From contig CM059431.1 of NCBI GenBank assembly GCA_030390025.1, forward strand, positions 112,778,001 through 112,842,000: a stretch of DNA of 64,000 nt, read 5' to 3'. The position numbers and the translations under genes are program-made. The notes beneath the pieces were generated by a model. It saw nothing but the letters and a program-made list of their open reading frames with translations. It had not been told where the DNA came from and ran no database searches. The stretch comes from Squalus acanthias. Lineage: Eukaryota. Positions within the stretch are counted from its first letter, which is position 1, and the number at the start of each line of letters is the position of its first letter. This document shows positions 6,020 to 57,312 of the stretch, in pieces.

Positions 6020-7290
6020 TAGTGTTTTATAAAGGTTGAGCATAACCTCCTGGCTTTTGTACTCTATGCCTCTATTTATAAAGCGGTCATGATTGGACTA
6101 TAACCTGGTGTTGTGCGACACCTCTATTTATAAAGCCCAGGATCCCATATGTTTTGTTAATCTGTGCTGCCATCTTCAAAGATTTGTGCACAAGCACCCT
6201 GAGGACTCTGTTCTTGCACCCCCCTTTTAAATTGCACCATTTAGCTTATATTGTCTTCTCATTCTTCCTACCAAAATGTATCACCTCACACTTTTCTGCG
6301 TTGAATTTCATCTGCCCGCCCATTCCACCAGTCTGTCTTTGCCATCTTGAAGTCTATTGCTATCTTCCTCACTGTTTACTATACTTCCAAGTTTTGTATC
6401 ATGTACAAATTTCAAAATTGTGCCCTGGACCTCCAAGTCATTAATGTATATCAAAAACAGCAGTGATCTGGTACTGAACTTTGGGGAACACTGCTGTATA
6501 CTTCCCTCCAGTCTGAAAAACAGCCATTCACCATAACATTGTTTTTTTCTATCCCTTCGCCAATTTTGTACCAATGCTGCTACTGCCACTTCTCTCTCAC
6601 AGGCTTCAATTTTGCTAACAAGTCTATTATGTGGTACTTTATCAAAACACCATCTGAAAGTCCATATACACAACATCAATTGCACTGCCCTCAACCACCC
6701 TCTATGACCTCATCAAAAAGCTCAAATCAAGTTAGTCAATCAGGATTTGCCTTCAACAAATCCGTGCTGGCTCTCCTTTATTAGTCCATGCTTGTCGAAG
6801 TGGCTGTAAATTTTCTTCCGGATTATCGTTTCTAAAAGCTTCCCCACCACTGACGTTAAACCTGGCGATAACAGGCCAGTCAGTTTATCAGTCTCCCCTT
6901 TTTTGAACAAGGGTGTAACATTTGCAATCCTTCAGTCCTCTAGCATCACCCTTGTATTTAAGGAGGATTGGAAGATTGTGGCCAGCACCTCTGCAATTTC
7001 TACCCTTACTTCCCTCAGCAACTTAGGATGCATCCCATCCAGACCGGGTGACTTATCCACTTTAAGTACTGACAGCCTTTCCAGTACCTCTATTTTTATC
7101 TCACCTAGTATCCCAACAACCTCCTCGTTTATCATAGCTTTGGCAAAGTCCTCTTCCTTGGTAAACACTGAGGGAAAGTACTCATTAAGTGCCTCAGCCA
7201 TGCCTTCTGCCTCCACCAATAGATCTTCATTTTGGTCCCTAATCAGCCCACCGCTCCTGACAACCCTTTTACTGTTAATATACCTAACGT
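6020..7290 (-). mobile_element. CR1 LINE ORF2 fragment (degenerate)
   Basis: KSPGLDGMHPKLLREV and FDKVPH..LVSKI peptides, frameshifted. Confidence 0.85.
6085..6120 (+). mobile_element. 36-bp Penelope-like micro-insertion in CR1
   Basis: TTGGACTATAACCTGGTGTTGTGCGAC identical to part of the 22.8-kb element; 16-bp direct repeat CCTCTATTTATAAAGC at 6069-6084 and 6121-6136. Confidence 0.8.
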
Positions 7291-17019: not shown

Positions 17020-17235
17020 CTTGGGTAGCTTAATTGGAGGCTCCCTCGATTCCTCTTCCTCATCACTGTCTGACTCTCCACTCTGGATAGAATTCTTTGA
17101 GGCCAAAGTCAGGGAGGCTTCTTTCCGCTGCCATTCCAGCACACACTGACGTACATTGCAGTAAACATTGAAGGCTGAGGGGTTACTATGGACTTTGATA
17201 TCTGGAATAGGTGACGCATTTTCCAAATTCTCTGT
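17020..17235 (-). CDS. MYCBP2: MYCBP2 coding exon 3 (216 nt, TENLEN...EPPIKLPK)
   Basis: HSNPSAFNVYCNVRQCVLEWQ...SGESDSDEEEESREPPIKLPK near-identical to human; acceptor tttttcctttAG, donor AAG|GTAAG. Confidence 0.97.
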
Positions 17236-22330: not shown

Positions 22331-22754
22331 AACTTTAAATCTAGAAGTACTCCCTCAGAAAGATAGTTTAAAAAATGTATATTATAGCACATGCTCTTTG
22401 ACAGTAGGATTTAAAAAGTAGCCCAATAAAAAGAAATCCTGTCGGATTCCCATGTTCTGGAATGGTCTTTGGGTTCACCATTCTTCTAGCCCAGTACTGC
22501 TTTATGCTGAGAAGTTATTCTCTTCTCTTTCCAGCACAATGGAAAGTTCCTTGCTCTTCATGTGGCATATCATAGAATAAACTTGCAATGTATATTTTTT
22601 GTAAAAGTAATGTTAGTCCATTGATGGCTGCCTTAGGTTTACTGTTCTGCCTCATTATAAAACTTTGCAAAGGCAACACACTTCCTTAAACAGATTTGAA
22701 AGAAATGAGAAGTCGCACAACACCAGGTTATAGTCCAACAGTTTTATTTAAAAT

Positions 22755-22790
22755 TACGAGCTTTCGGAGCTGCTGCTCCTTCGTCAGGTA
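22755..22790 (-). ncRNA. Minimal type-I hammerhead ribozyme motif (sense to MYCBP2 pre-mRNA)
   Basis: UAC-CUGACGA-A-GGAGC-AGCA-GCUCC-GAAA-GC-UC/GUA: conserved core boxes, 5-bp stem II, UAC:GUA stem I; activity untested. Confidence 0.7.
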
Positions 22791-22800
22791 GAGGTACCGC

Positions 22801-22836
22801 TACCTGACGAAGGAGCAGCAGCTCCGAAAGCTTGTA
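22801..22836 (+). ncRNA. Minimal type-I hammerhead ribozyme motif (second arm)
   Basis: UAC-CUGACGA-A-GGAGC-AGCA-GCUCC-GAAA-GC-UU/GUA; self-complementary AAGCUU at stem III. Confidence 0.7.
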
Positions 22837-23399
22837 ATTTTAAATAAAACTGTTGGACTATAACCTGGTGTTGTGCGACTTCTCATTTTTGTCCACCCCA
22901 GACCAACACCGGCATCTCCAGATTTGAAAGAACACCAACAGCTGTACCTAGATACAACTCAATGTATCTACTCCTGATCAGTATCCAGTGTTCCCTGTTG
23001 GAAATGCATGTGGGGATGAAGGAGGACCAATCAGGTTCAGTTTTAATGCACTCATGGTTAAACAGCCTGCCAACACTCGCCGTTAAACTCACATAATAAC
23101 CATACACCAAGAAGTCAGCGGCAATGGGAGAAAACCAACACAGAAAATTGGCAAAAGAATAAACGGCAAAATTTTAAAAATGGAGAAACATATCAAAGGG
23201 TAGGTAATCTTGCATCCCTCATTCAATTTTAAAATGAAAAATATACAACAAAAAAAAAGTACAGCATATGGAGATCTAGCTTAATACTGAAGCCACAGAA
23301 GCACTCATCTGGAGACTGCGCAGACAATAATGCTTTCTGAAATATTAAGCATAATGCCCAAACAGCGCTCTTGGAACGAACTGAATTTTACTTTATATT

Positions 23400-35885: not shown

Positions 35886-35984
35886 GCTGTATTTCATGTT
35901 AATTATTGCTAACCATGAGCCATTCCCTGCTGCCACAGTGCAACCTTTTCCTTTTCTAACTATTCGGCAAATAGATCTACTTGC

Positions 35985-36060
35985 CTTTGTTCGTGTTTTC
36001 ACTTTGGACTTGGTCTTCTGCTTCCTTTTAAGTTTTTTCTTGCTCAAAGCTTTTTTATTT
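35985..36060 (-). CDS. MYCBP2: MYCBP2 coding exon 2 (76 nt, NKKALSKKKLKRKQKTKSKVKTRTK)
   Basis: Basic peptide matches human NKKILNKKKLKRKQKSKSKVKTRSK; acceptor ttttctgtttcAG; non-canonical donor AAG|GCAAGT keeps frame with exon 3. Confidence 0.95.
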
Positions 36061-56874: not shown

Positions 56875-57312
56875 TGAGACTTATACAGCGCCTTTCTGGA
56901 CGTCCCAAAGCACTTTTTGAAGTGTTCTCTGTTGTAATGTAGGAAGCGTGGCAGCCAATGTGCACACAACAAACTGCAATGACCAGCTAATCTGTTTTTA
57001 GTAATGTTAGTTGAGCTGTTCTTCTTCAAAATAGTGCCATGGGTTCATCTGAGAGTGATGCGGATAGTGATTTCAAATAAAACTGTTGGACTATAACCTG
57101 GTGTTGTGCGACCTCTCAATTTCATCTGAGAGAGCAGACAGAGCCTCAGGCTAATGTCTGGTCTAAAAGATGGCACCTCCGTCAGTGCAGAACTCCGTCA
57201 GTACTGCACTGAAGTGTCCACCGAGATATTGTACACAAGTCTCTGGAGTGGGACTTGAACCCACAGCTTTCTGACTCTGAAGTGGAGAGTGTTGCGACTG
57301 AGCCATGGCTGA
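56875..57312 (-). mobile_element. Deu-domain SINE adjacent to MYCBP2 promoter
   Basis: Minus strand TGGCTCAGT A box, GGTTCAAGTCC B box, CCCATGGCACTATTT core, AAAGGCGCTGTATAA tail. Confidence 0.75.
57056..57120 (+). mobile_element. 65-bp Penelope-like insertion inside the SINE
   Basis: AAATAAAACTGTTGGACTATAACCTGGTGTTGTGCGAC shared with 22.8-kb element; 12-bp direct repeat TTCATCTGAGAG at 57044-57055 and 57121-57132. Confidence 0.8.

Follow-up and report, generated by a model that had tools for sequence, protein, structure and literature searches.

A truncated Neptune-type Penelope-like insertion with two head-to-head hammerhead ends in a Squalus acanthias intron, likely primed on both target strands

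The inverted-arm arrangement has already been described for Penelope-like elements (PLEs) in general (PMC3846280; PMC8557442). Elements of the Pen2a_Av type show head-to-head inverted pLTRs with a one-sided tail of 30-40 nt, a target-site duplication (TSD) and a palindrome at the junction. How the inverted arms originate is debated: self-priming was proposed in PMC3846280, and PMC11167929 leaves the later steps of insertion unvalidated and the inverted arms unexplained. According to PMC11167929, the PLE protein cuts and extends both target strands, reverse transcription (RT) begins at two sites bounding the tail, the RNA is uncleaved, and ribozyme cleavage takes place only with the element's protein and is dispensable for insertion; this in vitro precedent concerns a Poseidon element, not a Neptune element. 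For metazoan PLE hammerheads, PMC4209133 describes monomers that were not cleaved and dimers that were cleaved little, and notes that hammerheads also occur in opposite-strand pairs separated by 100-700 bp. The accessible parts of PMC2377424 and bioRxiv 10.64898/2026.07.22.740005 added no explanation of the inverted arms, and in the main texts of the open-access literature we found no report of two-template PLE arms or of shark PLE palindromes.

The locus described here lies in a window of 64,000 nt from Squalus acanthias (GCA_030390025.1, contig CM059431.1, positions 112,778,001-112,842,000), the whole stretch of DNA that was analysed. We estimate at roughly three in four the probability that its 214-bp insert is the truncated landing of a Neptune-type PLE, made of two head-to-head ribozyme ends, with both nicked strands likely priming RT on two RNA templates. 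The evidence for two templates and for run-off at the start site, for which we found no counterpart in the open-access texts, bears on that debate. Thousands of palindromes of this kind, with a single TSD and allele-marked arms, amount to a natural experiment that allows a direct genomic test of how the arms arise, with the result favouring two templates for each insertion.

The original prediction had described a spacerless 186-bp palindrome with two mismatches and a 14-bp TSD, and each of these elements was recovered. The palindrome occupies 22703-22888 (93 nt per arm) and is the only one in the window scoring at least 20; its mismatches fall at 22792/22799 and 22758/22833 and nowhere else; and CAGATTTGAAAGAA is found at 22691-22704 and again, identically, at 22919-22932. 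The tail-less arm, or pLTR end (22703-22795), is read on the minus strand, which is the sense of the host gene, and its outer 2 nt double as part of the left TSD. It differs from the parent element (locus L131) at two positions only, both of which also differ in the tailed arm. The tailed-arm body (22796-22888, plus strand) bears a rare G allele at 22799 and T22833, and is followed on this arm only by a 30-nt non-palindromic tail (22889-22918, plus strand), missing from the original description; in the parent, 6 nt more lead to the ATG of the ORF. A one-sided tail of this type is a hallmark of Penelope. The arms meet at a self-complementary GTAC (22794-22797), about 3 nt downstream of the parent's Inr-like A.

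In a contig from a related organism (X10-12), the alignment passes without a gap from 22691 to 22920 and skips exactly 228 nt, i.e. the 214-nt insert plus one TSD copy, leaving the other copy at the empty site. The insert is also missing from a contig of a second related organism (X9-25), the flanks being about 4% divergent in these relatives (for X10, 37 of 902 bases differ). The insertion is therefore real and lineage-specific, and the TSD is a true duplication. As to its placement in intron 2 of MYCBP2, the bracketing exons, exon 2 (35985-36060, minus strand) and exon 3 (17020-17235, minus strand), do join in frame. Peptide motifs in the exons suggest MYCBP2 as the probable host gene, and the exons and the intron are numbered from these motifs and the window's own sequence. 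Pfam and PDB searches with the host exon peptides tried gave no match. Exon 2 apparently ends at a GC donor, AAG^GCAAGT (35979-35984, minus strand), which would make intron 2 an 18.7-kb GC-AG intron. We regard the locus as an ordinary lineage-specific transposon stub, with no demonstrated effect on the host gene.

The Penelope origin that had been proposed for the insert also holds: it is the 5'-truncated landing of a 3.0-kb Neptune-type PLE, recognizable from its pLTR, tail, TSD and RT-bearing parent. The parent unit, taken from the tandem copy L131, measures 3,010 bp, and its ORF opens with an ATG at the tail end and closes 254 nt short of the following hammerhead unit. L131 is laid out as pLTR-ORF-pLTR plus an inverted arm and its ORF is frameshifted; in a second copy, L132, a 660-aa frame matches the RT family PF00078 with E 1.1e-6 and 29.0 bits, just below the Pfam cut-off of 29.6. 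Homologues carry PF00078, and PF01541 (GIY-YIG) is present in 16 of the 120 homologues listed. Pfam did not detect GIY-YIG in L131/L132-type copies; a VVYLIRC...WYIGET motif is nonetheless visible by eye, and is preceded in both L131 and L132 by the linker PCHGNLCKTC (C-x4-C-x2-C). The closest proteins among the listed matches are from sharks (79-90%) and also turtles, and a PDB search returned no relative of the parent ORF. PMC8557442 defines the Neptune clade by a CX2-5CxxC linker between RT and EN, and the RT, the linker and the C-terminal GIY-YIG-like motif are common to this clade and the shark parent. Judged from its sequence motifs, the parent is a Neptune-type PLE by that definition. 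The (TA)n target bias given there for Neptune is not evident in the shark TSDs, which are AT-rich unique sequence. Of the features of EN+ PLE insertions, the family shows an RT ORF, a partial pLTR tandem, an inverted 5'-truncated copy, a one-sided tail and a TSD. As in the Pen2a_Av type (PMC3846280, PMC8557442), TATATATA and TCACT motifs lie about 20 nt apart in the shark element. The shark insert differs from that type in being made of two stubs of about 95 and 125 nt, in occurring in thousands of copies and in having arm allele differences that can be counted.

Each arm contains, as had been claimed, the complete motif string of a minimal type-I hammerhead with a palindromic AGCU stem III, as predicted from its bases. 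The minus-arm hammerhead (22755-22790) reads UAC-CUGACGA-A-GGAGC/agca/GCUCC-GAAA-GCU-C^GUA, the caret marking the predicted cut 3' of C22758, and the predicted plus-arm hammerhead occupies 22801-22836. An AATAAA, a candidate poly(A) signal, also follows in each arm (22743-22748, minus strand; 22843-22848, plus strand). With the metazoan PLE hammerheads of PMC4209133, the shark motif shares the type I fold, the extra base between 9 and 10.1, G10.1-C11.1, the palindromic 15.2-16.2 and a short stem I, whereas stem II has 5 bp in the shark family and 7-8 bp in theirs. PMC11167929 places the ORF start of Poseidon_Ac inside the hammerhead; the shark ORF begins 91 nt past the predicted cut, where the tail ends. 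Rfam recognized no hammerhead family even at E<=10 and returned only sub-threshold matches to miRNA hairpins.

Among 37 haplotypes that each occurred two or more times, the only change in the core is U4C, found in one of them; the parser demanded a core, so that arms with a broken core fell outside this count. N7 takes all four bases and loop II varies from 4 to 9 nt, while stems I and II are paired in 95.2% of cells, against 17-48% in slid controls. Stem I swaps between U-A and C-G (17 vs 19), possibly through one single event, and stem II shows G-U changes and one U-A swap. From these alignments, the conservation of the ribozyme is that of selection on active parents, not on the copy in the window. 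The U4C change belongs to a sub-lineage (L061:3700-3737, minus strand; 4-5 arms in the sample) that pairs a CCGACGA core with a compensated stem II, GGAGT/ACTCC. In the hammerheads of L032, L074, L075 and L085, loop II contains the palindrome ATCGAT, which might offer a further contact between dimer partners.

The original prediction drew attention to a mismatch at the cleavage nucleotide. This mismatch is real, with H17 being C22758 on the minus arm and T22833 on the plus arm; it is nevertheless a plain C>T change at a CpG, and C and T are both common alleles of the family (11 C and 74 T among 85 arms). Since H17 in the window's subfamily is a C within a CpG, T22833 is most simply read as a deamination.

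Head-to-head arms are the usual form of this family. The 3.7-Gb genome contains 94,566 exact copies of a 25-mer taken from the arm, and 5,607 loci genome-wide carry two hammerhead cores head-to-head within 30 nt. We sampled 325 kb around the first 100 matches of the 25-mer on contig C1 (its first 3.1 Mb), a sample biased to young copies. It contained 112 arms, 80 of them in 40 head-to-head pairs and 32 unpaired, so that pairs make up 40 of the 72 sampled insertions. Every pair (40/40) joins one tailed and one tail-less arm, and 33 of the 40 have an exact TSD of 11-15 bp. The distance between anchors is below 300 bp in 28 of the 40 and forms a continuous range from 26 to 2,943 bp. A search for hidden short partners found a tail-end stub for 2 of the 23 unpaired tail-less arms in this sample. 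Because most of these 23 arms are without a detectable tailed partner, insertions primed on a single strand seem to occur too.

The centre of the window's insert recurs exactly at 24 loci genome-wide, and 23 loci have a perfect spacerless centre. A centre common to 24 loci is what one would expect if the palindrome were itself a small mobile unit resembling a SINE, MITE or retrozyme, propagated in one piece from a palindromic master and losing a variable amount of its central part, and three pairs with G/T at the first mismatch and the same polarity could be read in the same way. We consider such a unit highly improbable: arm lengths and centres form a continuum (26 to 2,943 bp between anchors), tandem arrays were not seen in the sampled loci, and the recurrent centre is accounted for by start-site run-off together with GTAC. 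The G allele at 22799 (unit position 4, T/G) is present at five loci genome-wide; at the three where this position lies within both arms (the window, L002 and L004) the partner arm has T. The idea that G is fixed to the tailed arm was rejected, because L133 has it on the tail-less arm, and the same polarity came from selecting loci with a tailed query. Retrozymes and palindromic SINEs are a poor match in other respects too, the centres and lengths being variable and the arms reading through the cut site.

Differences between partner arms bear most directly on the number of templates. We parsed 49 of the first 50 double-core loci listed, counting alleles seen at least twice and excluding CpG changes. 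The two arms carry unlike family alleles in 20 of the 49 palindromes, seven of them at two markers, and the discordant markers lie in loop II (17), stem II (8) and N7 (3); private differences between arms affect 15 of 1,288 non-CpG sites. A single TSD of at least 10 bp bounds both outer ends in 18 of the 20 discordant pairs, the remaining two lacking a readable boundary, and in none of the 18 is the TSD sequence found in the centre. Because the arms differ under one TSD that is absent from the centre, these palindromes favour, at the level of sequence, a single event with two unlike templates over the published self-priming. For the window's own insert, the two-template case comes down to a single non-CpG difference, located 4 nt away from the junction. 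Differences at a single marker may be RT slips, since loop II alleles recur across subfamilies.

If the arms arose by fold-back (self-priming), a single cDNA, or the antisense template proposed in PMC3846280, would bend back at a short palindrome and copy its own mirror arm. The junctions do frequently fall on self-complementary words (GTAC, AAGCTT, GAATTC, ATATAT), and 29 of the 49 pairs are concordant, some with private variants in common. Self-priming nevertheless predicts identical arms, which is contradicted by the 20 discordant pairs (seven at two linked markers, 18 under one TSD), it gives no reason for the stop of the second arm at the tail boundary in 40 of 40 pairs, and the 23 perfect spacerless centres, a direct product of two-strand annealing, count against it. 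We therefore hold it to be unlikely as the general route, and it may still apply to part of the concordant pairs. The 20 discordant pairs also fall short of the 30.5 +/- 2.2 that arms of a given stem I type would give if paired at random, and L131 and L133 have private variants common to all arms. Together with the 29 concordant pairs, this fits partner arms derived mostly from a single source element; copying by fold-back, or conversion between the arms at a later stage, fits equally well.

In L1 twin priming, both target strands prime and the resulting inversion is joined by microhomology, the two segments being non-overlapping parts of one RNA. The shark arms, in contrast, both copy the same segment and can stem from different alleles.

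The inner ends of the arms cluster just behind a TATA box and TCACT. Among the 41 short arms of the C1 sample (the long arms making up 48 of 89), 27 end at -6 to +2 relative to the Inr-like A, 11 at +4 to +10 and 3 at +11 to 40 nt, the transcription start being read from motifs and arm extents varying with the reference chosen. Within the subfamily to which the window's insert belongs, 29 of the 37 short arms have their end at -5 to +1, a range whose lower bound was set by the search pattern and in which overlapping loci were counted separately. Arm starts genome-wide, scored as breakpoints with two non-consensus bases upstream, number 158, 208, 207 and 48 at unit positions 37, 39 (the cut), 41 and 43, or 281, 555, 368 and 128 once corrected for detection odds. 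Starts at the cut are thus 1.5-2 times those at flanking positions, partly through stem I microhomology: among 30 cut-site loci inspected, seven are stem I microhomology joins and two are intact upstream. A ribozyme-cut hotspot was not upheld, with no clear peak, though there may be a small excess. The RNA that is copied appears to be mostly uncut by the ribozyme.

Under our preferred reading, with both strands primed, the endonuclease would make a staggered cut in the target; one target strand would prime RT where the tail ends and the other where it begins, in keeping with the pair of RT start sites in PMC11167929. Both cDNAs would run off the 5' end of RNAs mostly uncut by the ribozyme, just behind the TATA/Inr-like start and 6-12 nt before the hammerhead, and their ends would anneal at the self-complementary GTAC and be filled in. 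Both outer ends of the palindrome are 3' ends of the element, one lying after the tail and the other before it, which matches the two-site, two-strand start of the anole PLE; in Poseidon_Ac, too, the tail is bounded by two 3' ends of the element, extension takes place on both strands and the template RNA is uncleaved (PMC11167929).

A speculative extension, which we think is unlikely, is that the minimal hammerhead of Penelope serves mainly as a signal for RNA dimerisation: AGCU kissing and a swapped stem I would bring two transcripts together in a dimeric RT-EN complex, and priming would then take place on the two target strands simultaneously. It would explain why stem II and loop II alleles mix within pairs (20/49) and stem I types do not (0/49, against 20.8 expected at random). 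Arm-arm divergence, however, is 22/864 (2.5%) for one stem I type and 3/378 (0.8%) for the other, so that the types differ in age and perhaps had no opportunity to pair. The modelling also disfavours the dimer, at -17.9 kcal/mol compared with -19.6 kcal/mol for the two separate monomers.

The original prediction had further viewed the mirror arm as a selected lock, silencing the ribozyme and the poly(A) signal and so possibly making intronic copies tolerable. The predicted full hairpin would indeed bury both motifs, which are intact, the modelled equilibrium probability of stem II pairing being about 4e-18, and, from the general behaviour of intronic poly(A) signals, it is plausible that some solo sense arms are lost from introns once they have inserted. 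The antisense arm does come first in the MYCBP2 pre-mRNA as had been stated; the order is the same on either strand, however, and is not a feature of the MYCBP2 orientation. A self-silencing design is not needed, head-to-head arms being the default product of the family (40/72; 5,607 loci) and the commonest insertion product in the C1 sample. The same architecture spans PLE clades, including the hammerhead-free Naiads (PMC8557442), cleavage by minimal hammerheads of metazoans is weak or depends on the protein of the element (PMC4209133 and PMC11167929), and the modelled dimer and monomer energies leave perhaps little to lock. We give selection for such a lock very little credence. Burial would follow from the insertion chemistry on either strand, and nothing observed points to selection for silencing; the predicted hairpin of about 90 bp in the pre-mRNA, hiding the ribozyme and AAUAAA, would be a by-product and likely neutral. 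Some 5,600 short near-perfect hairpins are a sizeable potential source of dsRNA and cruciforms in this genome.

The window contains two further copies of the family. One (57044-57132), with a 12-bp TSD, combines an inverted stub of 9 nt from the tail end with a tail-less arm whose start falls exactly at the predicted ribozyme cut (GTGA), and the other (6069-6136) is a 27-nt tail-less stub with a 16-bp TSD, within another repeat. Elsewhere in the genome, at L132:6483-6620, an arm landed right at the TATATATA box belonging to a different pLTR in this family, which may represent self-targeting.
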